DNA of 63,994 bases, filler included, from Sphacelaria rigidula (taxonomy: Eukaryota), in the NCBI GenBank assembly GCA_964200075.2. It is 4 parts of 4 records of this genome, joined end to end, with 100 filler letters (N's around TTAATTAATTAA, not from the genome) between each part and the next. Parts side by side here need not be neighbours in the genome. Positions count along the whole stretch, not along the records: positions 1 to 15,996 come from CAXNAA020001528.1; 3 more parts are not named here. One strand, written 5' to 3'. The notes under the pieces were generated by a model. That model was not told where the DNA came from. It saw only the letters and a program-made list of their open reading frames with translations, and searched no databases. The position numbers were made by a program, and so were the translations under genes. Below are positions 1 through 48,278 of this stretch, piece after piece. How positions within the stretch are numbered: the stretch's first letter is position 1; the number at the start of each line of letters is the position of its first letter.

Positions 1-902
1 GATGTCTGACACACTTATGAGCCTCTGTTTTTGTGCAACCAAATACCCCCCCCCGTATCGTAGGATGATTCATTTGTACAGCCTCCGCTGTTTGAAAGTC
101 CTCATTTTGCTGGCCAATTTATCCTAAAATTGGGCAAAAGGAAGGACTTCCGAACAGCCTCTGCTGTACAAATCCTACATCAATGTATGGGATTCGAACT
201 GCAGAAGTTGTTCAAAAAGCGTCGTCTTGCTCACCAATTCATATCAATTGGGCAAAACGAGAATTTTTCAACAGCCTCTACGGTACAAATCCTATATACT
301 GGCTGCCAGTATGTGTACACACGGCCATGCTACAAAGCAACAACCGGTGAAGGTGGATCTCTAGCATGTACGCGCCATTTCTATATACCTGGCTTTGAAA
401 AACCCGTAGTCGAGAATATACGAAAAAGCAAGATGGACCGAGCCAGAGGATCGAACAAAACGCCGTCGAATTATTCTGGTCGCGGTTTGTACTTTGATGG
501 GGATACGAATCAATACAAGCACGGTATGGTGCTGCACTAGACCGTACCATACCGTGCAGGACAGCACTATACGGTGTTGGAACGTGCATTGCTGTACTGA
601 AGAGTACGCGGTATGCGCTACGTATCGCTATCATTCGCATGTGTGTAAGTTTGGATCAGGGGGTGTTGTATGCCGTCTGCCATACACGCGTTGCTAACAG
701 TGCGAGCCAGAGTGTGCGTGTCTACGTGTTTTGTGCGGTAGGATGCGAAAGTGAAGCGGGCAACGTGCTGCACAGACAACGCAGGACTATCCGTACTCTC
801 TGCTTACGATACGACGTTAAAATTACTTGAACAGCGCGCAGCTTTGTACTGCCTGTACTGTCCATGACCGAGTACGCAAGTCGGTCGTCCGCCGTACGAC
901 GC

Positions 903-1110
903 CGTTCCGTCGCAGACCCCTACGATGAAAGAAGATGCTCAAGTTTTCGCCAACAAAAAATAAACGCATCATACCCAACTGCTGCAGCAGTGTATCTATC
1001 CCTGTGTCCAACTCGTGCTCTATGCTGCAGGGTTGCGGTGGGAGCTGGGAATGGGTTGTGTGGGGTTTGCATGGTTCTCTGGACGGCTGGTGGTATCTGG
1101 CGTGGTGGTC
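903..1110 (+). repeat. Dispersed repeat (second copy at 26521-26725)
   Basis: Shared GTTCCGTCGC...CCCTAC...GCCAACAAAAAA...CATACCCAACT...GCAGTGTATCTATCCCTGTGT...CAACTCGTGCTCTATGCTGCAGGGTTGC. Confidence 0.85.
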
Positions 1111-2003
1111 AACTGCAAGATTGTTGGAGTTGCAAAAGTGTCCTGGAGACCATGGGGGCACAAGTGTCCTCTAGAGGCTTGATGTAGTCGAACTCCAGAG
1201 GTGAATTGACACACTGGAGAGGATTATTTTTCTATTTTCCCCCAGAGGCATCCTCAGTGAAATCATGTGCCCAAGGGGATCATGTGTCCTCTAGCGACTC
1301 GTGTGTGTCCTCCTCAGCGGCATTATGACCCACTTGAGGGTTTTTTATTCTCCGGAGGGCCATTTTGCTCTCTAGAGAAAAATAACGCGATAGTGGGATT
1401 TCGAGGAAAAGCCGATTAGCCGCGTGTGCATCCATCGAATGGACATTTATTTTCGCTCGAAAATGAATGAACGGCCGGTACGACGCACACCGGCGTTCAA
1501 TACGTTTTACCGGCTTGGGATCATTGCTGCACTACAGCGCTTTGTTGCAAAGTACAAACCCGCAGCTGCTGATGAACAAAAGGACGATTAGGGACGCGAT
1601 GATATGTCGTGGGCGGAAAATACTACTGCAGAAGAGGGTGACTTGATCCCTCCACCTGGCAACGAACGCAACACCGCGGAGAGGGCGGTAATTAGATGCC
1701 AGGACCCGTCTTTCGTCCTAGCGACGAAGGACATCGTTAAACCTACTTGGGAGGCAGGACGCAACAGGATAGAGGCGAACGAGACAGCGTTACGCCTCGT
1801 CGGTTCTGGCGCGATGGTGCTGTTTCGTTGGCCTCCCCAAGCCGCGTCCTACATCCGGCATAACATCTAACGGCATCCGCTTCCATCGTTCGGATAAGAA
1901 GCTTATCTGACATGTTGCCCTCACCCTCCTCTACGACATCATCTTCCACCTGTAACATACCTTCGCATTTCTCACGATCCTCTTGCAAAATATCGACCTT
2001 CAT

Positions 2004-2032
2004 CTGCTGCTGCTGCTGCTGCTGTTGCTGCT
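2004..2032. repeat. (CTG)n microsatellite
   Basis: CTGCTGCTGCTGCTGCTGCTGTTGCTG seen directly. Confidence 0.9.
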
Positions 2033-3169
2033 TCCTGTCTAAACTCGCAACCAAGGAGCAACGGCCTCAAGACGATTGTGATCCTGTGAAATATGAATCT
2101 CAGCCTTCATCTATTTTCCTGCTCACGGCTGCACGCTATGTTCACGAACACACCAGTCTTCTCGTGTTCCCGAGGGGGCGCTGTACAGTGACTGGGATTA
2201 CTAAACTTTGAAACAGGGGCTCCAACTTCAGCAGAGCCCGACGACAAATCTCAAACGTTGTTGAGTCGATGATTTCCGCGGTCATCAACCCGGTGATGTT
2301 TTTACTTCGAACGAGTATGTAGGTGCAAAGCCGACGAAGTTGCTGTCGACGCGAAAATAAATATTTCGATTTGCTGCTATTTAACACTTTGACCGTCGGT
2401 GGTCATCCGTTGAATCGCGATCAATCATATTCGACAAGCTAATGCATGACCCAGGTGATCTACCCTATCCTCGAGGTCAAGGACTTGACACTGTTAACAC
2501 CCCTGGGGGGTCAGTTAAAGTGCGACATTAAATAAAAAATCAATAACACCAGAGTAGGTCATGGGTTGAATGAGCATCCTCTTCGCTTGAAAAATGGATG
2601 TAAGATATGATCTACCCTTGCGGTCACAGGGATACATATGTCTTTTGAACATATGTAGTAATAGATTGAGATCTTTGGTGAATTTTGGTAACGCACGACC
2701 AAACGTATTCGTGCCGTTGGGGTTGGTCAAATGTCCGCGATGAGGGCCGAACATTTGACACCCATCAAAATTCGAACGGGGTGCAGCATCCCAGTGTCGT
2801 TTGCAAAAGCTCAGAGAACCCTTGCATTATAGGAATACCCTGCCACGGCAACTCACCGAACGAGATGTCTATGCTGTAAAGGCACCCCCGTCAAGCAGAT
2901 GCGAGTCAATGGCTGCTATGGCACCCTCTGCGCAAAGACGCGTGCGACGTTCATATGCTCCGCATCGCCCACACGCTGCTACGGCAGCAGAGCTCGATTG
3001 AGTCTCATGGGGAGGAGGGGCCCTACAGTGTCAGGTCTTACGGTACTCAGGCCGGCCGCGCGACGTGTGGCGCCGCACACATCGAATAGAGGCCTTGGGG
3101 GGGTATGAAGCATGGGTACACTATCGATGTCGCGGGCACAACCTTTTGAGCGTTGTTTTGGGTTGTGCA

Positions 3170-3440
3170 CAGTGTGTGCTGTGCTGTAGTGTATGACACT
3201 CCTGCTGCTTCTGTTGGCAACACGCTGCATGTCATGCTGTTCTGTACAGCTGCACTGTGCTGCTCCACTGTGCAGTACTGTTCTGCACTACTGCTCCACT
3301 GCGCTGTACTTTTCTGTACTACAGCTACACTACTCCATACTGCTCTGTATTATGGCTGCACTACTGCTTGTACCACTCTCGGTGCTACAGACAGTACATA
3401 TCCTGTACGGCCGTATTATCTGTATCGACTGTACTGCACC
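3170..3440. repeat. Degenerate CTGTA/CTGCA/CTACT low-complexity tract
   Basis: Dense imperfect short repeats that explain the overlapping Cys/Thr/Leu-rich spurious ORFs. Confidence 0.7.
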
Positions 3441-4799
3441 CGCGTTTTCGAACGGCGACGGGTTACCCACCGTTCGCTTAGGGGTACTAACGTCACTGAA
3501 CAAAAATATGGAGGCGACCAGTAAAATACAAATTCAGGTAGTTCGCACGCGCTTACTTTTGTGTGACTCGAAAACTTGATTAGCGAATTTGTTAGTCGAA
3601 AACTAGCTAAACATTTTTTCGCAACACTCTGATTCCCTAAATAAACATGGAGAAATCTGGAATCTTACAACGGGAGCATAACAAGAAGTGAGCGTCACGG
3701 GCATGACGTTGTCCATGGAAAAGCGCACTTCGTCTCGTGAGGGCATCGCATTTTTCCGCCGATGGGATTTCGAGCCATTCATTTGGAAGTCGCATGCGAT
3801 TCAGCCCTCCGATTATCAAAATGTCGTACTTCCGTGTCAACAGATGAAATTAATTTTCGAGCTGTTGTTCAAAATGCCATTCACGAGGTCCTCACAACAG
3901 CCGTTTACCGAACGATGGGAAGCCCCGGAAGATGACCATCTCACGATGTATCCGGCGTTTTGAAAGAGTTTGAGCATGTTGTACCGAACAACGAGCGTTT
4001 TCCCACGACTCTAGGCAAGATCTAATGTAGTTTAGGTCCCCCAAGGCACTCTCTGACCGAGCGCAATCAACACAGCGTACGTGTCGATCGGATAACTACT
4101 AGCACCGCAGGTTCTAGGCTGCATATTTTGCACTTGAAGCGCATAGCGTTGTTCAACAGCCGCACGCGGTCAACGACTCTGGGGATCCTCTCCGTCTCGC
4201 AGCCAGCTTTTTGAACCTAGCCTTGAGTCGCGACTTGCACACCGAAAGTTGTCCCGAACAGACATGATGATCCTAGGCCCTGTTGGTTGTCCTTCCTGCC
4301 TCGTAATTTCTGATTATGCCTTCGATTCCAGGTTGCTGGCAATCTCGGCATATCGACCAAACAGCGCCCTAGCTCCGCGGCCGCAGCAGAGCAGCGACAA
4401 TTGGTTGATGTGGCGAATCATCGCCGACCCTCCAGTGCAGTTTGTCAACGGTCGAGCCCGGCACACGTCGGTTCAAAAAGGTGTAACGAAATAACCCTAC
4501 GTTTTTCAAAGCATGGCACGGGTGAAACCGTACGATTATCAGGAGCGAACATAACCCCTGCCCCCATGTTATGAACACAGTCAACCGGTTTTGTTGAAGA
4601 GCAAAAGCGTACTCGCACGTACTTCACTTCCCCCTGCCTAACGAGTTCTTGTGTTTCAGCAATGGCCTAGCCTTACTTTTCTATCGATAGACCAGCAGCA
4701 GGCCTCGCACATATCTCATCTCTCATGTATACTGTCAACTGCACCGCCACCGCATCCCACCCCACTCTTCTCGCCGTTCTCATTCCCCGACCAAACTAG

Positions 4800-7700
4800 T
4801 GGCGGGAGGGGAGCATGGAATGGCCCACCATCCAACAGAAGACCCCCTCCTCCGCGGGGGTTCGTTGGGAGGGGGCGACCAAGGCCGGGCGGACCGAGCT
4901 GCTGTCCACGGTGCGGATTTGGCCGTGGAGGGAGAGGGGGATTGCGTCCTCACGGGTCCCCGATACTCGGGAGGGGCCCTTGCTCAGGTCCGCCACGTGG
5001 ACGAGGCCCGCCCCCACCGAGGGCAATGATCCGAGGGCCAATACCTGGCAGAGCGATGCTTGGAATGGGAAGAGGTCCCGTGCCGCCCCGACCCGGGATG
5101 GGTAGAGGACCGAGGGGACCCATACGCGCGCCTGGTAGGGGTCGAGGGCCTGGGGGCAGGTTTCCGATGCGCCCGGGGGGGAGGGTGCTGGTGGTGGGTC
5201 CTAGGCAACCGGGACGATGGAGGGGTCCGCCCCCGCCTGGAATGAGCCAAGGGCCAAGGTCTCTTGGGTCAGGGCCGCGACCGATGAGCGCGAGGGGAGG
5301 GGATTGTGATCAGCCTCCGGTGGCACCTTCGTGGATGTCCACACCGTTGGGCGCCGCTGATGATGATTTCGCGCAGCCTGTTCCTGTCTCCAACAAGTCC
5401 GTCGTTCCGAAGGAATCTACAGTGGGTAGTGAGCCCTCACGCGAAATTTCGGAAGAGAAGGGCGCTGCGCGTGAGGGGCAGCCCTCGAAGTCGCGCCTTC
5501 CTCCGTGGGCGAAGCCGTTGAAGGCTACGGCAGCAGAACCGATGCAGAAAGAAGCAGGGTCTGGCAAGAGAAGATCTTCTCTGGGAGGCGGCATGCCGGC
5601 CTGGGCCCCGAAACAGACAGTCAGCGCGACAACTTCGAGTAGCAGGACAGACGCGCAAGAAGAAGCGAGGTATGTTTTCCAAGCGAAATATAATGTGACA
5701 GTGGAACGGGCACAATTTGATCCTTCTATTGAGTTGATGCCACGGGTAAAGGGCATAATTAACATTGCTACGCTAGTCTCTGCGACTTCTGCACATTGTT
5801 ATATTCCGTTGTGTTCCTTGCTGCCTTTTTGTCTGATATCCTGGATTCACGCACCTGCTTTTTCAGCTCCCCACCTCGTCAGGACGGTCTTCCGGACTGG
5901 TTGCAGCCGCAAACGGGCAGTTCGGCTGCGCTTCCGGCGGCAGTGACATCATCAACTGATAAAGCCGGCAGCGTCGAAGTAGGAAAAACCGGAAAAACCA
6001 TCACGGACGGGGCCGTTGACGGTTTGGATTGGCTGCAGGCACTGGCGACGAAGCCGACCGCTGCTGTAGCGCCTCCATTGGATGATGCGCCGGCCCCGCT
6101 GCCCACAGTATCTGGGGCAACTGAGCTCGGCCTTGCTTACTCCGGCGAGCAATCAGGGGAAAAGGATTGGCTTGCGGCTGCTTTGAGGGGGGAAACCCCC
6201 CCACCTCCAGCGGCGGCAGCGAGGCCGACTACAGCTGTTGCTATACCTGGCGCAGGAGTTGTGGAAGGTGCTAGCTCCTCTTGCTGTCCTCGATCGATAC
6301 GTAGACACGACGTTGATTTGTGACTGAAACTTGTGTGCGTCCGCGAGACAAGGTTGCTTCATGTAACTGTTCGGTACTGCGTTTCCGCCCCCGGAGCAGG
6401 AGAGCCATTCATGTCCTGGCACGACCGACATCTTCACGCAGCCATCCGTTGAGTAGTTAAATACCATCTCCCCTCCCCCCCTCCGCACTTTTATTTAGGT
6501 GCCACAGATGCGGCATCGGGAGACTGGCTTACCGTAGCTGCGGCCAGCGGTGGGGCATCAAACAAGAAGACGCGGCAACGTCAACCGTCTACGACTGCGT
6601 CGGCAGGGTGGTTGTCGGGGAGCCTCGGTCTTGCTGCTAACGACGACGACGATGCGGGTAAGGATTAGGAAGGATCAACGGTATACGGTGAAATCAGCTG
6701 AGGGTGGTCGCACGATAGAGGGTGGGGTGCTTCAAGCCATTTTTGACACGAAGAAACTAATTTGCTTGAAACATCTGTGCAGTCTTGTCAACGGTTTCAC
6801 CCGCATGAAAGCCCAAGCGCGTGACAAGTGTTGCGGGGTTGTGAAACACGCCCATGAGCTCCTTTATGTCGTGCATTAAAGCGTGCCCTCCCTATATCGT
6901 TGGCGTCACCTCGCTAGACAAGTCGATGACGTTGCACAGGATGAGTACAACCCCAAAGTACCCTGCTACTGCGTTTGCGAAATAAAATTGGTAATCGTAA
7001 TATAGCGTTGTTGTTGTGTTGTGTTGTCGTCTCATCTATTCTGGACGCCGGTCAACACCGTTCGGTATATGTGGGCGCACCAGTCAGGGTCAAACGGGAG
7101 GAAGGCCGATACAGGAGTTTCTTATTTTTTGTTTGTTTTAGTTCTCCACCTTCTTTCTGTGGTGCTTGCCTTTATTTTTTATCGCGAGAGGGCTTCCGCT
7201 GTCCTTTACCCTCGTCGACCATTAAGTCGAATTTTGTGTATCCACGACATAGTCGCTCTCCACTGTTGAGCATTGTGTGAGAAAAAAATCCTAGATTGCT
7301 CCGAGATTCGAACCCACGACCCAACCATCAGAAGATTTCGAGGTTACCAACTGAACCTCCGGGGCGTATATGATACGACAGCTCGTGCACGAAGACAAAT
7401 TATACCGAATGCAAGGACCAACAAACATTCCGCCGGCGCCAGTTTTACGCATTCGACGGATCAAAAATGAAGACTGACGGGGGACCGTAGGCACTGATCG
7501 ACATCCAATACCACCCGTTTCATCCGTAACGGAAGAAAATGGTTTGACTCAGCTACATCGCTTTGTGCTGCATAACAGGATCTGGGACTTGAGAATGCGA
7601 TTCTGTCACAGGGCCAAGTCCTTTTCACGAAGAAATGTCACCGCCGCGGTGTGAGCTGATAAAGCGCACCCTGGCCAGACTCTACCTCTAGCTCAACATC

Positions 7701-10700
7701 CCCATACCCTGTTCGTTGCCGGGTGCGCCGCTCTGTCATTAGAGGAAACGCTCGGTCCGGTAACCAAAGCCAAGACCGTTGCGACTACCGGCATAGTTGG
7801 TGGTGACTGGCTAACCTCCGGCAAGCTCGGAGTGTCGGTGGATGACGATGAAGAGGAAGCAGTGATCGTAACAAAGAAGGCAGCGAAGAAGAGTGCCAAG
7901 AAGGAAAAGTCTTCCAAAAAGAAAAAGTCCCCCACTCCTACTGCGGCAGCCACCGGCGGATGGCTCACCCAGGCTGCGACGACGGGTTCCTTCGTCGAAA
8001 CTCGCGATTCGGAGGGCGAGGATAGCGAAGACGACGATCAAGATACCGACATCCACGAGCCCGTCGAGAGTACCGCATCCCTTCAGTCATCGCCCAAACG
8101 CCGTTCCTCACTCGGGGGTGGGATGCCTGCTTGGGGTCGACCCACTGGCGGTAAGCCTGCATCAGCGAGTGCGGCAACCGACCGATCCACTGCAGCTGAA
8201 CCGAAATCAGCGCCGACCCGAGGGCTTGGCGGGGGTCGACCACCTTGGGCTCCGGCACCGCCACCACCGGTGGCAACCCCTGAGTCGGAACCCGAAGCCA
8301 AACCTGAGTCTCTCGAAGATACCACGAAACGTGGTGAGGAGGGGGAGAATAGCGGTCTTCCTGACTGGCTTGCTGCTGCAGCAGGGGCGGGGGTAGGGGC
8401 TAAGAGTGTGCAAGTGAGTCCGGAAGGCTGACAATGGATGCACCCGTGAGAAGATGGGATGACACAAAGAGTTTCGCGCTAGTTCAGTGTTGCGCTTGCG
8501 CGTTTTCGGGTACCATTCTGTTCTCGTGTCTGCTCCATTTCTTCCCTCCTCTGCTCTTGCTAGATTACCTGCTTTGTTAAGGCCACTTCGTAAAAATCTA
8601 AATAAAGTTTCTAGTAGAAATGTCCAGCAGTGACCTTCTCCCGACGTGTTTTCCCGACTAAAACAGTCTCCTAAACCTTTTATGACTCCGGGGGGAAATG
8701 ACGGGATCCACGTCAAGATAGGGACGCCGGCTCGTGCGATACATGCCATCACTAATTTGATGAACAAAACAGCGGCCGCTACACTGTCCGTTGTCTACAA
8801 CTGTCTATTGTCTAGATTACATATTTCCGTAGTCGCATGTGTAGTAAAGCGCTGCCTGTGCGGCCGCATTGCATGTGCCGGGCAGTATGCTGCTGCCGTT
8901 TGTGCTTGCATGCGTGTAGCGTAAAGGTATGTGCTGTAGCTGTGTGTCTTGTATACCCTGTTTCTGACGAATTTTGATCTCGCCGAAAAACACTGTTTTT
9001 CTTGACGAGATGGGCGAGGAAAGCACCTCTCTGGAGAAAAATCCCAATCTGGGAGAATTGTCCCTCCAGCAAAAGGGGCCTACAAGCATTGGTTCAGAAA
9101 GAAACCCTCGAACACGCGCCCGAATTTTTTCTAGACTGGAGTTTTCCAAGAAGCGGCCTGACTCTGCAGATGCACCGCACCCGTTGAAATTCCAACAAAT
9201 CCGGACAACTTGAATTGCATGTCGTTGAATACCTTACCTTCAGGGTGGTACAGCAAATGCAGATTGCGGTGACGTCCTACCAGTTTCATCAACGGCAGCA
9301 GATGATGCGTCTACATCTGCCGCGCCACCAGTTACCGCAGAAGATATTCTCGCCGCTGCGCTTGCCGGAAAGACGATCGCGACCGGGTCTTCCACCGCAC
9401 GGGTGGACGCTCCTTCCACTCCTCACGCGGACGAACAGCCTTCTGATACCGTCGCCACCGCCGCCAGCAGTACTGAGGGGCTGGACTGGCTATCAGCTGC
9501 CGCGGCGGACCCGAAGTCAAAAGAACGGCCGATCACTACCGCTGGCGATGCCGCCACGCCAAGAAGAAGGGCATCTAAGGCACCCTCGCAGTCGGCACCC
9601 GGCGGCTGGCTCACGTCCGGTAAGCTGGGAGTGTCAACCGGGGACGATAGCGGCGACGAAGCTGCGGCTGGCAAAGACAAGACGGCTGGCGTGGGTGAGA
9701 CGACAAAAAAACGGGCGACCAAGAAGCACACCAAAGTTCCGAAGAAAACAGCAGGAGCGCCCGCGGTCACGGACGCGACTGGTGAGCCTGGAGGATGGCT
9801 TACGTCTGGCAAGCTCGGCGTGTCATCCGACGACAGTAGTTTTGACGAAGAGGGTGATCAAGACGGGGACATCGGCGATAAACCCTCGGGGATCACCATC
9901 GGAACGCAGTGGGACGAAGGTGGCGGAGAGGCGGTGGCCAAGGCTGCTGCTGAGTCGAAGCTCCCTCCGTGGGCGAAAAGGTGGACTCCACCGGCAGCTC
10001 CAGAACCGCAGAATGTCGTGGAAGAGAATTCTTCCGCATCAGCAGACTCTGAGCCGACCGCAAGCGGTGTGGACTGGATTGCAGGTGCCATGTCCGGTAC
10101 GTCCGTGCTAGAGAAAAAAACCCCAGGTGCTCAACAGCGCGGCGGTGACGATGTTAGTGGTGGAGATACCAGCGGCAGCGGTGGATTGAGTTGGCTGGCG
10201 CAAGTTGCTTCATCTGACCCCACTGTAGCAACTTCTGTGTCCAGGTTAAACGAACCCCTCGCCGCTTCCCCGTCGGACACGCCCGTTTCCGTCGCGGGTG
10301 TAGTAAATGGTGGTGGTTCTGGCGGCCTGGAATGGCTTTCTGCGGCCGCGGTTGGTGGACAGATCACGAGAAGACCGTCCGCCGCTGGCGCCGCCGTGCG
10401 AAGGCGTTCGCTCGCGCCTAAGACTCCGGCGCCCCCGACGGTGGCCGCAGGTTGGCTGACCTCCGGCAAACTCGGGGTTTCGACCGGAGACGGTAGCGAC
10501 GACGAAGGTCCGACCGCCGGGAAGGAAATATTGGGGTGCGCCAAGACGAAGCAGAAGCTGCCGAACAAGGGCAAGAAGAAAGCAAAGGGGGCGACAGCAG
10601 CCGCATCGGTAGCCACCGGCGGCACGGCGGGTGGCGGGTGGCTGGCTTCTGGCAACCTCGGGGTTGTAGAGGACGAGTCTAGCGAGGAAGATCCTGACCC

Positions 10701-13700
10701 TCATGGGACGGGTGGTGGTGTACCGAACACGTTCGAGATGGCAACGCAGTGGGACGAAGGTGGCGGAGAGGCGGTGGCCAAGGCTGCTGCTGAGTCGAAG
10801 CTCCCTCCGTGGGCGAAAAGGTGGACTCCGCCCGCCCCCGATCCGCCGCCCACAGTTGAGGAGAGTCCTTGCTCTCCCACAAATGAAGTGAAGAAGAGGA
10901 GAGGTAGTGGGGTAGATTGGATCGACGGTGCTATACCCGGCGGGACGGGTGAGGCCCCGGGTAGGTCGATGATGATTTCTTATTTCGGAAACTCAAGTCA
11001 ATCTATGTCGAGGAGTCGCTACCAAGTATTTGCTGTTCATAGTGCGCGCGTCGTGTCTGCGGTGAATATGTATGAATGTCAATATCTGAATCGGGGTGTG
11101 CGAGGTGTCTCACTTTAGCAGTTTCCAGCTGAATCAGGGGAGTTCTGTAACTTTTCGTCGTCGGCGATTTTCAATACCTTCCCCCGTGCCACCGCTCATC
11201 CCAGTGATCACTTGGTCCCAAATTTTTGGGATCGTGAGACACAAGGCATCTGCTTCACATTCCGAAACAAACAACATATCTGCACTGAATATTGAAGGAC
11301 TTACGGGCTGACCGGTCCTCGGGGGTCCCGCGACTACCAAGCCCTAGGTTCTCACCCTTGGGTATTTTTGCCCGATTGAAGCCATCCTGATCGCCCTCGT
11401 GAACAAATATAGCGAATTGATTTCGAATTTATACCTGGTCATTGCGCTAGGGCGAAATAAACGTGTTTTTCGGACCAGTATCGGTCGATAACACCCCCTG
11501 ATAAATGGGGTCCCAACTCCGTATCACCTCGACAACACCAACTGGAGTATTGTGTGCTGAGCACCACCTGCTTCTTTCGCCATGATCTATCACGCTATCA
11601 TGGGATTTTCGAGTGTTGGGGAAGAATATTATACGAGGAAATCCAGAAAAATACCCTGCTACAAAATTGCCCAACCGAGCTCTGTATCGCAAAGCGGGGG
11701 GGGGGCGGGGGGGGGCGGGGGATTCGCGATCTTGCATGCCATAGTCATATGACCATTGACCTCGCATCCCTACAAAGCCGGGACGGACGGAGAACGCTGG
11801 GTTTTCGCCGTACCAGGCTCGCAGAAATCACCAAGCGAGGGGGGGATGGAAGGGTGTACTCTTTTGTTGCTTACCTTGGTCTTTTGACCACTGACCACGC
11901 ATCCCTTTCGAGACGAAGCACCGTCCCTATTCCTAATAGAGACACGGAGGGGTACTCATTCATAGTTGCTTTAGTCGTATGGCCATTGACCACTCATCCC
12001 CTTCGACACCGAGCACCGTCACTGTTCCAAATAGAGACACCTTCAACATCTGGGTGCTCATTGCGTTTCTTCCATACATTACACAAAATCATTTTACACA
12101 TCGTATTCTCTACCTCTTTCGCCGTCTGCGTCCACCATATACCTTCTCGTGAAGTGATCGTTTTCTCGCCACTTTGAATCAACCGATTCCATGGCACCTT
12201 ATTCTACTTGCCGCATTTCCCCCCCCTAACACTTTCCGTTCCTCCTTGTATAGTTCACGTCCTGCCACTTTTATGAGTTCTACTCTCTTTTGCTTTGCCA
12301 CAGGGGCAATTCTGTGCATGTACTTCCTCCTCCACTCGACTACTGGTATACCTCTTTCTTCTTTCTAGCCAGGTCCCCCACCCGAAATCACAGTACAGGG
12401 GTTGGGAGGGGGGGAGAGTGCACTCATTTGTTGCTTGCCTTAGTCGTTTGATCATTGCACAAGGGGAGGGTGAAACAACCCCGATCGCGCATGTGAATAA
12501 TATTTCATTTTGTTTTTCTTCAACCTATTCATTGCGCTGAAGCCGAAAATAAATATAAAAATCGAGTAAATATTCTGATTCAACTGGAGAGTACTGTAAC
12601 GCGGACGCCCCTCGTTTTGTCAAATAAACGATACCGGTATCCTGTGCTTTCGTACATAAACACATCTCGCTGTTCTCCTTGATTGACCCCGTCATGTGCC
12701 ATTGTACCCAGACAGCAGTGGAGGATTAGGCTGGTTAACACAAGCTGCATCCGGAAACACGAACTCACCCGACGACCTCTCCGTGGCTGCTCTAACGGGC
12801 TCACCATTCGCGGCACCGGCGGCACTCAGTGCAACCACCGAAGGCGGCGACGGCCCGGACTGGCTAGCAGCAGCAGCAACGTCCAACGCCCACCCCCGTC
12901 ATCATACACGCAAGAAATCACACGGTACTGCTGCTTCTCGAAAGCCAATTCGCGGGCCTTCGATTTCCGCTGCCGCTCCTGGCGGCTGGATGACGTCGGG
13001 AAAGCTCGGAGTCTCGATAGGGGACGATGATAGTGACGAGGACGGTGGCGGACGAGGTAGGAACCGTGCGAGTAGGGCAGTCGGAAAATCCAAATTTAAA
13101 CCCGGGGGAGGGCGGCAAGCGCCACCTACGGCCACAGGTGGCGTCGGAGGATGGCTGTCCGCCGGGGGCGCGTTGGGGGTGCCAGTGGATCCTGAAAGTG
13201 ATGACGACGGCGGCGGTGGGGGTGACGGTTTTGGCAGAGATCGGCCTACGATGGTGTCCGGGGAGACTCAGACAGACGACGACATTGAAGGGATCGTGAA
13301 GAGGGGGGAGGTGCCTAAGTTGCCTCCGTGGGCAAAACGCTGGACGCCACCCGCCGAGCCGGTTGCGGAAGACTCACAGCATCCGACCGCTGAGTCTTCT
13401 TCGGCTGCTGGTGGGGAGCCAGACAAGCAGGTGAACACTGCTTGGAAGCGCTATGTCGCATGTGCGTGGTAGGATGCTTTTGGCAGCAAGGTACCTACGC
13501 AATTGCCCATGTGAAGTTGACGTCGGACGGTAGCGTCCATATTAAGGTGGCGTCGGCCGGTAGTGGATACGTAATTGTATTGAGCTGTCAGTACTGGTTA
13601 AGAGAGATCACTGTGACCGACTGATGGATTTTTCTGGTATCGGCGCATATCTACAGCAGAATTTGTATACACCACTCACCCAGAGTTACCGGTGCGACCG

Positions 13701-14526
13701 CTGCGCTCGTTGCATATGTTCGCGCCTGAAACGCAGGACTCCAAGCCCCCAGCACCAGACTGGATCCTGCAATCTTTAGGGGGTGGGGCTCGAGCGCCCG
13801 GTGACGGTGACGGTGTGGTGGCAATCGGTGGCAACGGGGGGCTGGATTGGTTGTCCCAAGCTGTCAGCTCCGATTCGCCTTTTGCGACTGAAGGTATTCT
13901 GCCGTACATGATATAAGACACATCCCAGTAGTAGTCTTCAAGAGCGATATACCCACTGCGGTAGATATCTTGAATGCAAAATGTTCCCATCAGAGGAGGC
14001 ACACATCCTCAAATATATTGACGACCACTCACGAATACGCCAGTTGCAATATGCGAAAAAGGAATTTTCGACGGCAACAAAAGTATCACCACTGCCATAC
14101 CGACAACATAAGCAGGAAACCCAGAATAAACGATGCCAAAACCCTAGTTTCACAATAATAACCACACGAGGATCCCTACACGCACCCCCCGATCGTCCCC
14201 CTCCAGGCTCCGCGTCCCACGGTGCCGGGAGGGGCCCCGATTGGTTGACACATGCTGTGGGGGGGGCGGTGATCAAGACCAAATCAATCCGTCGGTTGCA
14301 CGGAGTTAAGGCTGCCGCTCCCCCACCATTATCATGGATGAGCAAGATGAAGCGCCGTTCGTCCATGGATCTCGAGGACGAAGCGGTCGAGGCCGCGGTC
14401 GAGCAGGCCAAGGCGGCAGCGGTGCCCGGCGGTTGGCTTCAGATCGGAACATTGGGTGCCCCCGACGCATTGCAAGAGGAGAAGGAGTTGGAGCAGGCAC
14501 GGGCCGCCTCATCCCTTGTCAGGTGA
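4800..14526 (+). CDS. Large intrinsically disordered repeat protein (RG/P-rich N-terminus, many Trp-centred short motifs); 8 exons, 5'-partial, possibly 3'-partial
   Basis: Phase-consistent GT-AG exons: 4800-5669, 5867-6267, 6499-6657, 7743-8413, 9244-10960 (alternative donor 10948), 12712-13430, 13737-13893, 14207-14522 (or stop TGA 14524-14526). Motifs xGWLTSGKLGVS, G/PDWL, LPPWAKRWTPP and KRRSSLGGGMPAW recur across exons in the spliced frame. Start codon not identified. Confidence 0.85.
7007..7366 (-). mobile_element. tRNA-derived SINE, family 1 (intronic)
   Basis: Reverse strand begins CGCCCCGGAGGTTCAGTTGGTAAC...GTGGGTTCGAATCTCGG (Pol III A and B boxes), followed by a body and a CAA/CA-rich tail. 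Homologous to copies at 45526-45865 and 46196-46555. Confidence 0.8.
11299..11510 (+). repeat. Dispersed repeat / transposon end (second copy at ~60949-61150)
   Basis: Both copies begin ACTTACGGGCTGACCGGTC and share later blocks (TCCTGATC, CTAGGGC, ATAACACCC). Confidence 0.7.
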
Positions 14527-15996
14527 ATGGGGCGGCCCTGGCCGAAGGGAGGGGGGGGGGGGGGGGTTCTTATTTCTTGCCTTCTTTCATTCGAAGCACG
14601 CGGTTTGATTCAATTGCGGCCATTTGCTTATTATAAGGCGGCAGCGGGATAGGTTGTAGGTGGTGTTTTGTTGGTCTGTCGTAGCTGTTGTCCCACAAAG
14701 GCAAGATCTGCTACTGCTCTTCGCCGCCCGCCTTAGAGCGGATGCTGGTCAACACCAAGGCGGATATTTAGGGGTGGTGGATGATCCACACTAGGGCAAG
14801 ATTTTTGTCTCGCCGCCAATCACCACCCTAGTTTGGGGTCGGCGCGAACTGATGATTTTCACGTGGGGTTTATGTGTATTGTATATATATATATTTAAAA
14901 TATCTGTGGATTTTGTTACATGCACAAGAACTTTGGAAGAGATTGTAAACGTTATCATTATCAAAGATGTAGCTGTACGGAGGTACGACGATGCAGCTCA
15001 CATGTTTCCAGCGGGTGGGGAGATGTGGCGGAACAGTTGTTTCCCCGCACCAGGATGTAACTTAAAGTGGCAAAGACAAGGAGGGCATCAACCAAATGCC
15101 ACGGCGTGCCACGCTGGGTGGGGTGGATTTTGCTTAAGCCCACATACAAAAAGCTTGTATGTCGTATAATACCATAATTCATCTTCGTGTTTGGCGCCAA
15201 CACCCGTGTGGGTAGTCGAGAACCCGCCATAGTTCGATCTGAGCCGGCAGCCCACCGTAGATCGAACTGGGACGCGATTTTACACGCCAGACGGGAAAAT
15301 TTTACCTACGCCGCCTAAGAAAGAGCCCATCGCTGTAACGAAAACCTGTATATTTCAAAATATGTAAGGCTTGTCCTCCCCCCACGAGCAGGTGATCGAA
15401 CCTAGATGCTCTTGACTGCTTGAGTCACTCCTTGTTCGTATGGGGGGGAATACTCCGAGGAAAATCGCGTTCAAATAGCTAGTTCCTTGTATAGAATGAA
15501 CACGGATGTCAGGGAGCATGAGTCAGCTTGACTAGGACACACAAAGGGGCGCTTTGAGGTGGGGGGTTCTTATGATCTTGCATTCCGTCACCATAAGACG
15601 ATTGCAAGAGCAGGTCGGGTAGGGTATATTCAATTGCGGGGTATTATGAAAGTCGTACTTGAAGTACACAAATTGGGGTAGGGTGTTAGGAGTCGCCCTC
15701 CAGTCATTTTTTGGGCTCGACTTCTAGCACCCTCCCTCAATTTGAGTACTTGAAGCACTACTTTCGAAATAACCCGCAATTGAGGTTACCCTACTGGGCC
15801 TGACCCCCCTCTGACCCATACAATGCCGAAATGGAGCACGCCAGGTTTTCGCCGGCCCACGCTCGCAATGACCAAGCACGAAGCGCTGTGATGCTGTGAT
15901 GTGTTCGGCAAGTCGCATTGGGGGCGGGGGGGGAGGGGAGTCATGATCTTGCATGCCGTAGTCATGTGACCAGTGACTTCGCATCCCTTCAAAGCC

Positions 15997-16096
15997 NNNN
16001 NNNNNNNNNNNNNNNNNNNNNNNNNNNNNNNNNNNNNNNNTTAATTAATTAANNNNNNNNNNNNNNNNNNNNNNNNNNNNNNNNNNNNNNNNNNNN
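15997..16096. other. Artificial contig spacer (N44 + TTAATTAATTAA + N44)
   Basis: 100-nt spacer with a six-frame stop linker, identical to the other two spacers. Confidence 0.98.
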
Positions 16097-28600: not shown

Positions 28601-29303
28601 AAGGTGAGCGGGTTTCGTCACCAATCGTGCAGCTTTCATGCTATAGTCGTGGTTTCGGCTTCCGTTTATGGCCCAGGGTATGCAGGCAACAATGTCGAAT
28701 TCTTCCAATACGAACTTGAAGTGTGTCCTTGGCCGGCGCACTTTTACTACTTCAATTGAGCAAACGAGATTTTGTCGAGCTTCGTTATGTGACGTGTTGA
28801 AAGTGAAGAAACGCACTCGCGGACGGACGAAACCAACGGACGACTCACAGAAAATGAAGCAACTCATTGAAGGCCGTCATCCAACAGCAAGATAAAACGC
28901 TTCGAGCTTGGACAATCTTGGTAGGATGCCGCTCGCCTTCATGCGACTCGCTGAACAGATTACGGCGCCTCGCGCTTGGTGATTGATTGTGAGACTGGTC
29001 CGTTGAGAACTCGACGTGCTCCATCCGGCTTTGTAGGAATGCGAGCTCAATGGTCATATGACTACTGCATGTAAGATCATGAGTACATCCCCGCCCCCTC
29101 ACATTTGCACCCTGTTGCCCCGCTGTCCTTCAATAAACTCCCCGAAGGCATTGAGCGATTCCAAGGCACGAAAAAACTGGGAGGAGTATGGACATCCGGA
29201 TGGTTACCAGCCGTGGACCTTTGACCTCGCCCTCCCTGCCTGGCTGACGCCGGATAAGGACACGGACAAGTGGACAATGCTTCTCTACGCTATCGGCTAC
29301 ATT
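22626..29303 (+). CDS. SEC63-like ER membrane J-domain (DnaJ) protein, N-terminal part; 3' end unresolved
   Basis: Exons 22626-22807, 27794-27901, 28501-28603 and 29148-~29303 splice in phase to MSDTFYAAALGLAIPVLG...VLIAACVAFKHVASSMKLEPEFFDPYQILELPARGANSSMIRSQYRRLSLRYHPDKNPGNRKQAGVQFNKVANAYKALSDSKARKNWEEYGHPDGYQPWTFDLALPAWL. This gives two TM-like segments, a J domain with HPD, and the SEC63-typical RKNWEExGxPDG...ALPAW signature. Confidence 0.88.
26013..26292. repeat. Inverted repeat with ~75-bp arms (MITE-like, intronic)
   Basis: 26013-26088 is the imperfect reverse complement of 26221-26292. A third degenerate direct copy lies at ~25700-25760. Confidence 0.8.
28860..29095 (+). mobile_element. 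MITE family A copy in an intron of the SEC63-like gene
   Basis: Aligns by eye with 61720-61930 and 31940-32088; ends GATCATGAGTACATCCCC. Confidence 0.8.
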
Positions 29304-29535
29304 GTAGGTCTTTCGTTTGGAATAATCCCTTGTCTTTTTTTTTTTGCTGTTTCTTGTCGTACTCCGCGTAAAACCTGCACACCCTGGATAATGACAAAAG
29401 ATTCCACGGTAACAAAGGGTACTGCATACAGTATGCAATCTATTGTCCATTGCAATAGACGCAGTAGTCGATACTCTATGCAGTACCCGTTTGACACTGT
29501 AATCTATCGTCATCATCCAGAATGTAGAAAGCCAC

Positions 29536-29803
29536 CACAGGCACCGTAGGCGAGGTAGGTACCCGGTACCGGTACTTGGGACATCTCATACCCTACCGAT
29601 ACCGGTCCAATCCGGTATTTTGAAATGTCATATCTACGATACCTACGGTACCACGGTATTTTGAAATTTCAACACATACCGTACCCGCCCAATCCAGTAT
29701 TTTGAAATGTCATACCTACGATACCGACGCACACCACGGTATGGGATACCCCGGTTAATACCGGGTGTACGCTCGGTACGGTACCTTACTTACGGTGCCT
29801 GTG
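29536..29803. mobile_element. hAT-like MITE
   Basis: TIR CACAGGCACCGTA / TACGGTGCCTGTG; 8-bp flanks AAAGCCAC and AAAACCAC (1 mismatch); internal GTATTTTGAAAT three times and many GGTAC/TACC subrepeats. Confidence 0.75.
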
Positions 29804-32088: not shown

Positions 32089-32188
32089 NNNNNNNNNNNN
32101 NNNNNNNNNNNNNNNNNNNNNNNNNNNNNNNNTTAATTAATTAANNNNNNNNNNNNNNNNNNNNNNNNNNNNNNNNNNNNNNNNNNNN
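32089..32188. other. Artificial contig spacer (N44 + TTAATTAATTAA + N44)
   Basis: Same 100-nt spacer. Confidence 0.98.
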
Positions 32189-32415: not shown

Positions 32416-32801
32416 CAGGCGGCATCGCGCGTGTTGACATATAGTCGTGAAGCAGATGAAACGTGTCAGCTGTGACTCCTGTATTACAACCTATTGCAGC
32501 CAAATGATGACATCTCAAACCGTGGTGGAGTTGGATGCCTCCCGGAGTAGTAAATTCTCATTCTAGAGCTCAATACGCCCTTCGGTACACTTCGAACCCT
32601 TCCATTGGTGATTACTGCCTTCTTCGTTCCATGGTTTGGGTGGCTGACGCCCGGCGATTGATAGATGGGAAACTTGTCATTATCCTCTGGTTATGTGCGA
32701 TTGATGAAGAGCGCCAAACCATTACACTTGTAAACTTCATTCGTTTTCTGCAATGCTCTCGCTGTACATCCCTGCCCCTGCCTTTCTTGCTGAAACCCAA
32801 G

Positions 32802-35800
32802 TCGCTCCAACCATCATCGCGGTAGGAGTAGACACCGGGGGACGTCTGACAGTGGTGGCGATAGTAACGGTAGCGACAAAAATAGGTACCGTCATCGACA
32901 AAGAGGGCGGGATGACGACCGGGGTAGTCGTGACAACCGTGAAGGACGATGGCGCGACGCAGAAGAGCGCTCGAGAGTGGACCGCGGGTACGTACGAGGA
33001 GATCGAGAGAGCCTGCGTCGGCGAGAAAAAACTCACGATGACGGTGAGAACCAGCGAGAGAAAGGGCGAGAGGGGTCACCGTGGGGAAGGGTTTCCGGTA
33101 GAGTGCGAGAAGATCTGCGCAGTGGAGAGCGTGAGCCATCCGAGGGTCCGAGAGAATCAACGTTGAATGAAGGAAGTAGAGTGGAGGTCAGATATCATGG
33201 CAAAGGAACAAAGTTTTACAAGGGTAAAATCATGAGAGTAAACTCAGATGCAACTTTTGACATTGCATATGATGACGGCGACAGAGAAGTTGGGATCGCC
33301 CAAGAACACGTGAAATCTCTCGAGGGTTCTGGAGACCGTGATCGACAGAGAGTGGGAACGGACAAGTTTTCCAAGGGAGATGCCGTGGAGGCTAAATACC
33401 GTGGAAAAGGCAGCAAGTACTACAGAGGTAGGATTTCCAGGGTTAATTCCGATGGCACGCTAGACATCGCATATGATGACGGAGACAAAGAGGTAGGCAT
33501 CGAAGAAGTACACGTGAGATTTCTTGAGGGGGCTGACAATCGCGAGCGCGGATGCGAAGGGGATGATCGCTCGGTACGTGAAGGAGATGGAGTGGAGGTG
33601 AATTGCCGCGGGCGAGGTCGGTACTACAAGGGTCGCATAAGCCGGGTCAATCTGGATGGCACTTTCAACATCAACTACGATGACGGAGAAAAAGAGCACG
33701 GCGTAAAGGGCGACTTAATTCGTCGCGCTCGCAGCAACGACGTGTCATCGACAACTAGGCGTGAAGCTGAGCGCCGCAGCTCCAAGAGCACACTCCAGAG
33801 GGGCGATAGAGTGGAGGCCCGGTACCATGGCAGAGGCACTAAGTTCTACCGGGGTAAGATCTCCCGCGTGAACTCCGACGGCACGTTCGACATAAGCTAC
33901 GACGATGGCGAAAAGGAGCTGGGACTGACGGAGGAGCATGTGGTCTCTCTGGAGCCAGGGGCCACCCGAAATTCCGAAAAGAGAGCCGGTACTGCGAAAC
34001 TGGCGCGAGGGGACCGAGTCGAGGCCCGATACCGTGGCAAAGGCACCAAGTTCTACAAGGGCAAGATCTCCCGCGTGAACTCCGATGGCACGTTTGACAT
34101 CAACTACGACGATGGCGACAAGGAGTTGGGACTAGCGGAGGAGCACGTGGTCTCTCTGGAGCCGGGGGCAGGGCGAGACCCCGAGAAGAGAGCCGGTACT
34201 TCGAAACTGGCGCAGAGCGATCGAGTCGAGGCCCGGTACCATGGCAGAGGCACCAAGTTCTACCGGGGCAAGATCTCCCGCGTGAACTCCGATGGTACGT
34301 TCGACATCAAGTATGACGATGGCGAGAGGGATCTGGGACTAGCGGAGGAGCATGTGGTTTCACTGAAGCCTGAGGGGGGGCATGATGACGGCAAGGGAAT
34401 CGGTCGGTCGAAACTTGCGAAGGGCGACCGGGTCGAGGCCCGGTACCGTGGCAAAGGCACCAAGTTCTACAAGGGAAAGATCTCCCGCGTGAACTCCGAT
34501 GGTACGTTCGACGTAAGCTACGACGATGGCGACAAGGAGCTGGGACTAGCAGAGGAGCATGTGGTCTCTCTGGAGCCGGGGACTAGTCGAGACTCCGACA
34601 AGAGAGGCGGTACTTCGAAACTTGCGAAGGGCGACCGGGTCGAGGCCCGGTACCGTGGCAAAGGCCCCAAGTTCTACAAGGGAAAGATCTCCCGCGTGAA
34701 CTCCGACGGCACGTTCGACATCAACTATAACGATGGCGAAAAGGATATTGAACTAGCGGAGGAGCATGTGATCTCTCTGGAGCCGGGGGCAGGGCGAGAC
34801 TCCGACAAGAGAGACGGTACTGCGACACTTGCGAAGGGCGACCGGGTCGAGGCCCGGTACCGTGGCAAAGGCACCAAGTTCTACAAAGGCAAGATCTCTC
34901 GCGTGAACTCCGACGGCACGTTCGACATCAACTATGACGATGGCGAAAAGGAGTTGGGACTAGCGGAGGAGCATGTGGTCTCTCTGGAGCCGGGGGCAGG
35001 GCGAGACTCCGAGAAGAGAACCGGTACTTCGAAACTTGCGAAGGGCGACCGGGTCGAGGCCCGGTATCATGGCAGGGGCACCAAGTTCTACCGGGGCAAG
35101 ATCTCCCGCGTGAACTCCGACGGTACGTTCGACGTAAGCTACGACGATGGCGAAGAGGATATTGAACTAGCGGAGGAGCATGTGGTTTCTCTGGAGTCGG
35201 GGGCAGGGCGAGAGTCCGAGAAGAGAACCGGTACTGCGAAACTGGCGCGAGGAGACCGGGTCGAGGCGCGGTACCATGGCAGGGGCACCAAATTCTACAA
35301 GGGCAAGATCTCCCGCGTGAACTCCGATGGTACGTTCGACATCAACTATGAAGATGGCGAGAGGGAGCTGGGACTAGCAGAGGAGCATGTTGTCTCTCTT
35401 GAGCCGCGAGCGAGTCGAGATGCAACGAAAACAAATGAACGGGTGAGGGGAGATCGGGTCGAGGCTCGGTACCATGGAAGGGGTACCAAGTTCTACAAAG
35501 GCAAAATCTCCCGCGTGAACTCCGACGGCACGTTCGACGTAAGCTACGACGATGGCGAAAAGGACGTCGGACTAGCGGAGGAGCACGTGCTAGTTCTTGA
35601 GTCGGGGGCTAGCCGAGATTCCGCGAAGACACGTGTACTGACGAGGGGCGACCGGGTAGAGGCGCGGTTCCATGGCCGAGGTACCAAGTTCTACAAAGGC
35701 AAAATTTCCCGTGCGAACTCTGATGGCACGTTCGACGTTCACTACGATGATGGCGAGAAGGAGCGAGGATTGGCGGAGGAGCATATCAGATCCCTGGAAA

Positions 35801-48178: not shown

Positions 48179-48278
48179 NNNNNNNNNNNNNNNNNNNNNN
48201 NNNNNNNNNNNNNNNNNNNNNNTTAATTAATTAANNNNNNNNNNNNNNNNNNNNNNNNNNNNNNNNNNNNNNNNNNNN
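48179..48278. other. Artificial contig spacer (N44 + TTAATTAATTAA + N44)
   Basis: Same 100-nt spacer. Confidence 0.98.

Follow-up and report, generated by a model that had tools for sequence, protein, structure and literature searches.

The window, a stretch of 63,994 nucleotides of Sphacelaria rigidula DNA, holds the front part of a gene for a large disordered protein, which has an ordered architecture of Trp motifs under selection, splicing seen in part and no fold. We propose, giving this reading about an even chance, that the product is a brown-algal, intrinsically disordered multivalent scaffold of about 4,100 aa, cytosolic and non-plastid, clamped by LC8 and regulated by kinases. The initial annotation had described an uncharacterised disordered scaffold with several motif classes, and this core is upheld by spliced RNA-like contigs, by motifs more conserved than linkers and by the lack of a match to any characterised family; what it overlooked is the true size, the ordered super-repeat, the LC8-type TQT anchors and the RRxS kinase sites.

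Gene structure and extent

Eight exons on the + strand (window 4800-14522), with all introns GT-AG, join into 1,669 codons with zero stops. This agrees with the product of about 1,670 aa annotated initially, which is nevertheless a fragment and not the whole protein, as a spliced RNA-like contig continues past 14522. In the following list, X1 and X2 are presumed RNA contigs; they carry no RNA label on record, and their status was assessed from cover that is confined to exons.

4332..4480, + strand: probable further coding exon on the 5' side (phase 0 to phase 2), not within the coordinates of the initial annotation
4800..5669, + strand: exon, RG/P-rich, with CCPRCG, the first LPPWAK (5497) and KRRSSLGGGMPAW (5566-5604); GT-AG; RNA-like contigs
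5867..6267, + strand: exon with three DWL motifs; GT-AG
6499..6657, + strand: small exon with DWL and GWLSGSLG plus acidic run; GT-AG; tblastn match to P0002
7743..8413, + strand: exon with DWLTSGKLG plus acidic run, Lys-rich run, second KRRSSLGGGMPAW (8096-8134) and PDWL
9244..10960, + strand: large exon that holds core units 1 and 2; GT-AG
9892..9918, + strand: LC8-like anchor, TQW variant ITIGTQWDE; Trp at +1 violates the published mid-size rule
10732..10758, + strand: LC8-like anchor, TQW variant FEMATQWDE; motif match
12712..13430, + strand: exon with core unit 3; GT-AG; X1 records 5 and 6, X2 records 14 and 15
13254..13280, + strand: LC8-type TQT anchor VSGETQTDD; LPPWAK (13320) begins 17 residues past the Gln
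13737..13893, + strand: 157-nt exon with PDWI and GLDWL; GT-AG; gap in X1 record 6
14207..14522, + strand: best-conserved exon, with PDWL, SWMSKMKRRSS, GGWLQIGTLG and EARAASS; ends in a phase-2 splice donor
14523..15996, + strand: intron leaving the contig end; next exon G000:C1571:1155-1680, phase 2

The RNA-like contigs cover 4860-5148, 5219-5466 and 5507-5667 in the first of the eight exons, whose RG/P tract and CCPRCG are common to Scytosiphon P0011, and lie between 7853 and 8387 in exon 7743-8413. X2 record 8 departs from the genomic sequence at 5667, where 138 of its letters remain, in agreement with an X2 depth of 0.77 in the bin 5710-6210, while X2 record 11 joins it at 9244, preceded by 18 letters from elsewhere. 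Moreover, X1 record 6 matches 13204-13426 and 14205-14522, and the 159-letter gap between the two fits exon 13737-13893. The exon check proposed with the initial annotation thus succeeded for part of the gene; exon 6499-6657 is uncovered in both X1 and X2, and the 5' end was not found.

Upstream, a further coding exon is likely at 4332-4480, judging from its AG/GT ends, a phase compatible with exon 4800 and a weak tblastn match to the Ectocarpus N terminus (41% over 37 aa, E 9e-4, within 5 kb). X1 and X2 give no cover of this exon, nor any between 2704 and 4707. The ATG exon lies farther upstream: the window gave no convincing match to it. Four genome matches with E values of 0.09 to 0.8 were put down to chance. 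A WLSFL look-alike near 4284, which sits inside a polypyrimidine tract, was also rejected. Downstream, X1 record 6 extends 142 letters beyond 14522; hence the TGA at 14524-14526 belongs to a splice donor, and the stop annotated initially falls within an intron.

The same cassettes resume on G000:C1571 (several exons) and C5181, where the last exon lies (about 2074-3301), and the exon order C1528-C1571-C5181 agrees with that of the orthologues. The end of C1571 and the start of C5181 have 93 nt in common at 96%, possibly a repeat. We estimate a whole product of about 4,100 aa. The gene is probably single-copy, and growth through tandem duplication of exon blocks is the best explanation of its structure. 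In the unit tree, core units 1/2 and 4/5 of the S. rigidula gene are sister pairs, and 87 nt of unit 1 recur without mismatch in unit 2 (10743 = 9903), where they overlap the anchor; the tree gave no overall grouping by species (214/500 shuffles equally low).

Cassette order, conservation and disorder

The motif content of the window product bears out the initial counts. LPPWAK occurs four times (0 in 300 shuffles) and KRRSSLGGGMPAW twice; the "about nine" xGW(L/M)xxG(K)LG motifs correspond to seven strict [GDE]W[LM]xxGxLG copies, a pattern that the shuffles never produced, together with two looser variants in the sequence, and the "more than ten" W(L/I) motifs to 19 copies of a slightly widened xxW(L/I) pattern. 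A/S/T/G/P/E make up 61% of the product, and Trp (41) far exceeds Phe (11) and Tyr (1). There are four or five fixed contexts in which Trp occurs. Eight core cassettes share one fixed order, DWL, GGW(L/M)xSGKLG plus acidic run, basic run, second GGWL plus acidic run, TQT/TQW and KLPPWAKPW; units 1 and 2, in exon 9244-10960, read DWL, GGWLTSGKLG plus acidic run, basic run, GGWL..GxLG plus acidic run, TQW anchor and KLPPWAKRW. The spacer arrays between cassettes carry RRxS(L/F)xGGxPxW 14 times and SWMSKMKRRSS blocks three times. RRxS, the consensus of basophilic kinases of the PKA/PKG type, is present 7, 10 and 11 times, where shuffling gives means of 0.4-0.5, and KRRSSM is identical in 5-6/6 across six orthologues; the sites are thus kept as expected of PKA/PKG substrates, and their phosphorylation is a prediction.

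Orthologues were found in Ectocarpus, Nemacystus, Cladosiphon, Scytosiphon, Hapterophycus and Discosporangium, and exon 14207-14522 is about 58-60% identical to P0001 and to P0003. The Ectocarpus siliculosus orthologue, Esi_0136_0042 (CBJ29172.1, UniRef100_D7FJS0; 2,761 aa, annotated "hypothetical protein"), shares with the Sphacelaria gene the cassettes and their order, eight core units, a TQW-type last unit and an IQC near the C terminus; the Sphacelaria copy differs in being longer, with its own duplications and extra RRxS repeats, and in having TQW within internal units as well. In 6/6 named orthologues conservation of the motifs is roughly double that of the linkers (63-76% versus 30-35% identity), and pN/pS is 0.15-0.31 in motifs versus 0.54-0.83 in linkers; on these sequence comparisons, the motifs are under purifying selection. 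Every named match is a brown alga; the 99 profile matches mostly lack names, and 16/99 were looked up. Judged from these sequences, the gene persists in brown algae from the order that branched off first through to Ectocarpus. Database entries describe it as "hypothetical protein" alone, often broken into pieces, and no description of the protein was found in the literature, as far as search listings extend.

The absence of a globular domain noted initially was confirmed. Pfam returned no family in three window exons or three orthologues besides one sub-cut-off match (E=0.074), and ESM Atlas searches matched no characterised family. The AF2 model of one unit, based on an alignment of only 8 sequences, has a pLDDT of 49.7 and a pTM of 0.15, with no fold around the anchor (pLDDT 46-53) and helices only on GWLTQAA and DWLAA, both short and of low confidence; the ESM Atlas model of an orthologue has a pLDDT of 0.37. 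The FoldIndex-type score (0.047, near zero; 61% of windows negative) is uninformative, because the chain is Ala/Gly-rich.

LC8-type anchors

A TQT/TQW anchor lies upstream of the LPPWAK-type motif in 121/123 unit copies, nearly always 15-28 residues away, a count that is partly circular (the profile included the motif, and the regular expression fixed -1 and +1) and that includes near-copies and the Sphacelaria genome's own exons. The consensus (n=121) is V at -5 (72), T at -4 (86), I at -3 (57), E at -2 (69), T at -1 (111), Q at 0, T at +1 (97) and E/D at +2 (117), and [TVI]Q[TV][DE] is found 112 times, compared with 3.4 after shuffling. When compared with the LC8 position rules drawn from the available text of PMC6607443, 84/121 anchors satisfy all seven. 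As in LC8 anchors, 97/121 are TQT-type and 117/121 have D/E/P at +2, the TQW copies being excepted at +1; among flanking positions, 107/121 are large at -3, 119/121 hydrogen-bonding at -4, 121/121 non-aromatic at -2 and 120/121 free of internal Pro. The disordered setting, judged by AF2 and ESM Atlas pLDDT, is likewise that of LC8 clients.

The Sphacelaria gene carries five TQT, three TQW and one IQC anchors. The TQT anchor of the window, VSGETQTDD, is close to the phage-selected LC8 consensus VSRGTQTE (PMC3078936), in which V at -5 raises affinity, while its Gly at -3 is less favourable under the LC8 rules. Anchors with Trp at +1 (24/121, including 2/3 in the window) break the mid-size rule, and -3 is mostly Ile rather than Lys/Arg. 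At -1, T varies to V/I, which LC8 accepts, as in gephyrin GVQCE (PMC12057147), and a phospho-Thr site would not.

LC8-family genes are present in the Sphacelaria genome, but none of 8 candidates there proved to be the canonical LC8. The predicted complex of the anchor with an LC8 paralogue from Laminaria, not the canonical protein, lends weak support to binding: it scored 0.38 against 0.00 for the best control, with no interface given, a contact agreement between runs of at least 60% and a partner pLDDT of at least 43. The mark of the fold tool was attained by 51/78 solved pairs and 2/108 mismatched pairs, and at scores of 0.60 or less by 5/78 solved complexes and all 4 passing mismatches; moreover, LC8-TQT complexes have already been solved, so the pass may reflect memorised structures.

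Alternative readings and the proposed scaffold

The 41 Trp in a disordered chain, the alternation of acidic and basic blocks and the RG/P-rich N terminus would also suit a self-associating condensate or RNP-granule scaffold with an RNA-binding RG-rich head, where each Trp would serve as a generic sticker or an Argonaute/CCR4-NOT hook. We consider this unlikely, as fixed Trp contexts and a fixed order under purifying selection exceed what generic stickers need. GW182/TNRC6-type proteins hook Argonaute/CCR4-NOT via repeated GW/WG and are likewise Trp-rich within Gly/Ser/Thr-rich disorder; the Sphacelaria protein, unlike them, has a hydrophobic residue after Trp (L/M/I/A in 33/41), with GW 10 times, WG once and GWG never, and the hook was dropped. 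The Ectocarpus AGO paper, in its available text, names no such partner. A similarly low probability is assigned to a membrane-lining or vesicle-coat scaffold, compatible with LC8 binding, in which DWLxxAA forms many short amphipathic helices or DW binds adaptor appendages. The modelled helices, the Asp before 13/41 Trp and RRWLAFLDC, identical in 3/3 orthologue N termini examined and possibly, by analogy, a lipidated anchor, speak for it; but the model places little confidence in these short helices, the Sphacelaria genome yielded no N-terminal exon and the TQT anchor is left unexplained.

EB1 ligands use SxIP and the villin headpiece contacts actin, and by analogy KLPPWAK might bind the cytoskeleton directly in either manner. 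Basic runs lie beside the motifs and SKLP or SRLP occurs in 24/123 copies, but Ser is not conserved (S-x-L-P in 25/123; PKLP commonest, 55/123), so the EB1 ligand was dropped, and direct binding appears decidedly unlikely. FHA domains recognise pT-x-x-D, and T-Q-x-(D/E) accommodates both TQT and TQW; with the Lys-rich runs as possible nuclear localisation signals, the TQ sites could be ATM/ATR phosphosites of a nuclear DNA-damage scaffold. This is very improbable, given Val at -1 in 10/121 anchors, Ile in the C-terminal IQC and a V-5/T-4/I-3 strand pattern that fits LC8 over a kinase site. Least credible of all is a pyrenoid Rubisco linker. Repeated Trp motifs within disordered spacers recall the sticker-and-spacer layout of PYCO1, EPYC1 and CsLinker, PYCO1 has several sticker classes (PMC13655443) and Trp in its RbcS sticker (KWSPRGGS), and Ectocarpales bear pyrenoids. 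However, the Sphacelaria protein has other, cytosolic-type motifs; the signal and ASAFAP transit check proposed initially found neither a signal-peptide core nor an ASAFAP-like motif in 3/3 orthologue N termini, which are gene predictions (best 12-residue hydropathy 0.7-1.4); and an orthologue exists in Discosporangium, of an order without pyrenoids (PMC6492006). The EPYC1/PYCO1 analogy of the initial annotation is therefore not supported.

In the LC8-clamped scaffold that we propose, LC8/DYNLL-family dimers would likely clamp the TQT anchors and keep two chains parallel. With about 225-560 aa per anchor in Ectocarpus, the rungs are far apart, which implies a flexible ladder and not a rigid rod. 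Pairing of the chains would likely bring neighbouring Trp motifs together, so that partners are bound bivalently, and PKA/PKG-type kinases might, more tentatively, phosphorylate RRxS serines beside the Trp motifs and switch binding. Its place of action may, again tentatively, be the flagellar apparatus or the cytoskeleton of motile cells. Esi0136_0042 is one of 1,148 male-only genes, found in male and not female gametes (logFC +32, FDR 3.3e-5; PMC3879662 supplement, a single weak dataset); since IFT172 and IFT74 carry the female sign in the same table, this signal shows no flagellar role. The gene identifiers do not occur in the supplementary files searched from PMC12629598, PMC6742357, PMC8278619, PMC3652789 and PMC6337836, and a full-text match concerned another gene of that genomic scaffold. 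We regard as rather unlikely the fuller hypothesis of a motile-cell scaffold, an LC8 ladder with kinase-switchable cassettes and four or five new Trp motif classes per rung, which could frame a lineage-specific flagellar structure.

KANK1 linker L2 and ASCIZ/ATMIN are also long disordered chains with repeated TQT-type anchors; the databases searched reported no homology to these multivalent LC8 clients. According to the available text of PMC12803091, the sites of KANK1 follow one another at a spacing of 3-4 residues and give rise to rods, whereas the Sphacelaria-type protein has one per 225-560 residues, each in a fixed cassette of 5-7 Trp motifs, unlike KANK1. One LC8 site per large multi-motif cassette thus contrasts with the close-packed KANK1 array. 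Ectocarpus is reportedly open to gene editing (PMC12853178), and knock-out and localisation are feasible. For this large conserved protein, the analysis names LC8 as an initial partner that can be tested and an RRxS kinase as its regulator, together with four or five sharply conserved Trp motifs to which receptors may bind.

Gene model and extent of the coding region

In the Sphacelaria rigidula assembly (244 Mb, 27,214 contigs), eight exons joined in an open frame through GT-AG introns provide 1,669 stop-free codons (window 4800 to 14522), in agreement with the product of about 1,670 residues initially annotated. Recovery of the 5' end yielded one likely further exon, and the ATG exon, looked for in the window and in the genome, was not found.

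Features of the window
1-15996, contig C1528
4332-4480, likely further exon, upstream of exon 4800-5669
4800-5669, exon
5867-6267, exon
6499-6657, exon, no X1 or X2 cover
7743-8413, exon
9244-10960, exon (units 1 and 2)
12712-13430, exon (unit 3)
13737-13893, exon, 157 nt
14207-14522, exon, ends at a GTGA donor
15997-16096, 32089-32188 and 48179-48278, N-linkers between the four joined contigs; neighbours across them are thus not genomic neighbours
29037-29546 (+ strand), open frame with a YGHPDG stretch, presumably resembling Sec63/ERdj2
32794-38649 (+ strand), single 1,952-aa open frame on another contig, with tandem Tudor/Agenet-like repeats (21 Tudor_5 stretches, E 2.9e-103)

Splicing was assessed with four of eight sequencing runs compared with the window, the RNA status of runs X1 and X2 being the tool's guess. 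The cover of X1 and X2 falls on exons, with unique introns and 2704 to 4707 empty, while X5 covers all positions about 27-fold. X1 record 6 matches 13204 to 13426 and 14205 to 14522 with a 159-letter gap between them, which fits the 157-nt exon; the matches of three further contigs to the genome (X2 records 8 and 11, X1 record 5) start or stop at most a few bases from the borders of three more predicted introns. Exon 6499-6657 showed no such cover. X1 record 7, an RNA-like contig at 14575 to 14787, falls within the intron that follows the donor with the in-frame TGA and counts against a simple splicing picture; candidate explanations are pre-mRNA, a repeat or a short isoform. Introns at about 7000 to 7350 and 11750 to 12450 hold very high-copy repeats, whose depth is thousands-fold above that of unique sequence in both RNA-like and DNA-like runs.

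Since X1 record 6 extends 142 letters beyond 14522, the TGA at 14524 to 14526, with which the product had been thought to end, is part of the GTGA donor, and the 1,669 codons are a fragment. In a genome search (9 matches among 15 candidates), the core unit, a fixed motif series ending in LPPWAK, occurred only on this contig (C1528), C1571 and C5181. The first C1571 exon begins in phase 2, as the gene model requires, and seven exons of that contig make an unbroken frame of 1,056 codons. In the unit tree, the C5181 unit is placed with the terminal units from Ectocarpus, Nemacystus and Scytosiphon (94/91, under the starred level); the 93 nt common to the C1571 end and the C5181 start could be a repeat. 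We estimate the whole protein at about 4,100 aa, with the remaining exons added by eye and the phases of the last five provisional. Exon end and first intron bases are nearly identical in duplicated blocks (14501 to 14538 and C1571 7252 to 7289).

Motif architecture and conservation

The joined eight-exon product contains four copies of LPPWAK and seven of [GDE]W[LM]xxGxLG (each 0 in 300 shuffles), two of KRRSSLGGGMPAW, and as many as 41 Trp residues, compared with 11 Phe and 1 Tyr, which bears out the repeated motifs first described. The absence of a recognizable domain was likewise confirmed: Pfam returned no family, the AF2 model of one unit (8 sequences) reached pLDDT 49.7 and pTM 0.15, and for an orthologue of 845 aa the Atlas model had pLDDT 0.37. 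Each cassette runs DWL, DWL, basic run, GGW(L/M)xSGKLG plus acidic run, basic run, GGWLxxGxLG plus acidic run, TQT or TQW, KLPPWAKPW, with eight copies in this gene and eight in E. siliculosus. The inter-cassette stretches hold 14 RRxS(L/F)xGGxPxW repeats, RRxS being the PKA/PKG consensus, and three SWMSKMKRRSS exons. An 87-nt exact repeat (9903 to 9989 and 10743 to 10829), spanning TQW to LPPWAK of units 1 and 2, suggests recent duplication or gene conversion. CCPRCG, at about 4898 to 4915 within the RG-rich head, is kept in Scytosiphon P0011 (109 to 114), and other CxxC motifs occur in linkers of Nemacystus, Cladosiphon and Ectocarpus.

Homologue searches returned 3 and 10 proteins, and a profile search of 1.84 billion representatives gave 99 matches. 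The named homologues, a minority of the profile matches, are all from brown algae (Nemacystus, Cladosiphon, Scytosiphon, Hapterophycus, several Ectocarpus species and Discosporangium). In E. siliculosus the orthologue is Esi_0136_0042 (CBJ29172.1, 2,761 aa, "hypothetical protein"), split over three consecutive accessions in CCAP 1310/34. With motif positions set from the window sequence alone, Trp motifs are 63 to 76% and linkers 30 to 35% identical to all six named orthologues compared; among the duplicated exons of this gene, uncorrected pN/pS is 0.15 to 0.31 in motifs and 0.54 to 0.83 in linkers. The gene is real, conserved, transcribed according to the RNA-like runs and previously uncharacterized, no published description having been found in the open-access papers and readable supplements searched. 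The proposal of an uncharacterized scaffold holds.

LC8-type anchor

A [TV]-Q-[TW] anchor precedes 121 of the 123 distinct LPPWAK-type copies with 45 upstream residues; near-copies and exons of this genome are among them, and the profile and pattern used partly select for the anchor. Its consensus is V-T-I-E-T-Q-T-(E/D)-(E/D); the natural LC8 motif is [D/S]-K-X-[T/V/I]-Q-[T/V]-[D/E], and in the selected motif VSRGTQTE, Val-5 (Gln as position 0) raises affinity twentyfold (Rapali et al., PMC3078936). All seven LC8 position rules of Jespersen et al. (PMC6607443) hold in 84 of 121 anchors; Trp at +1, contrary to rule, occurs in 24, including two of the three in the window. In the first screen of that study, only 7 of 19 motif-predicted peptides bound.

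We also modeled unit 3 residues 168 to 211 in complex with an LC8 paralogue from Laminaria, present in two copies; over the matched exon this paralogue is 97% identical to the one at locus L015 of this genome. The complex gained weak support, scoring 0.38 against 0.00 for the best control. The fold-test mark was passed by 51 of 78 solved complexes and by 2 of 108 mismatched pairs; those passing at this score level were only 5 of the 78 solved pairs but all 4 passing mismatches. Runs agreed in at least 60% of contacts and partner pLDDT was at least 43; no interface was reported, and LC8-TQT structures were already known. Taken together, LC8 binding at the anchors is predicted with somewhat better than even chances. 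The exon at L015:1501-1611 (C3646) belongs to a divergent LC8 paralogue common to brown algae, Phaeothamnion, Chrysoparadoxa and Tribonema, which is a candidate partner besides canonical LC8.

Compartment and proposed mechanism

Three orthologue models start M...RRWLAFLDC, and their N termini showed neither a signal-peptide core nor anything like ASAFAP, the plastid-targeting motif. The gene is present in Discosporangium, despite the Discosporangiales being without pyrenoids (PMC6492006), and the stickers of PYCO1 differ from the motifs of this protein (PMC13655443). The analogy with pyrenoid linkers does not hold, and a Rubisco linker role is unlikely. Esi0136_0042 was detected in male gametes only (logFC +32.4, FDR 3.3e-5, positive sign being male; Lipinska et al., PMC3879662); this signal is weak, since the male-only set of those data numbers 1,148 genes and the table gives IFT172 and IFT74 the female sign. 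An enrichment of LC8 partners in the ciliary-centrosomal system has been reported (bioRxiv 10.1101/2023.09.15.557927), which is compatible with a motile-cell role but no proof of it.

Among the other explanations, a condensate scaffold or a membrane-binding scaffold could coexist with LC8 binding, and a cytoskeletal binder or phosphorylated TQ sites are further rivals. The most likely reading is a disordered scaffold of the cytosol, two chains of which would be clamped at each TQT by an LC8-family dimer. The protein resembles a multivalent LC8 client and is a candidate member of that class. The conserved RRxS sites adjoining Trp motifs are compatible with putative PKA/PKG control. KANK1, with LC8 sites 3 to 4 residues apart, is turned into a rod by such linkers (PMC12803091); unlike these, the LC8-type sites of the Ectocarpus orthologue are 225 to 560 residues apart, so we infer that the brown algal protein would form a flexible ladder, the rungs of which would pair adjacent Trp motifs.
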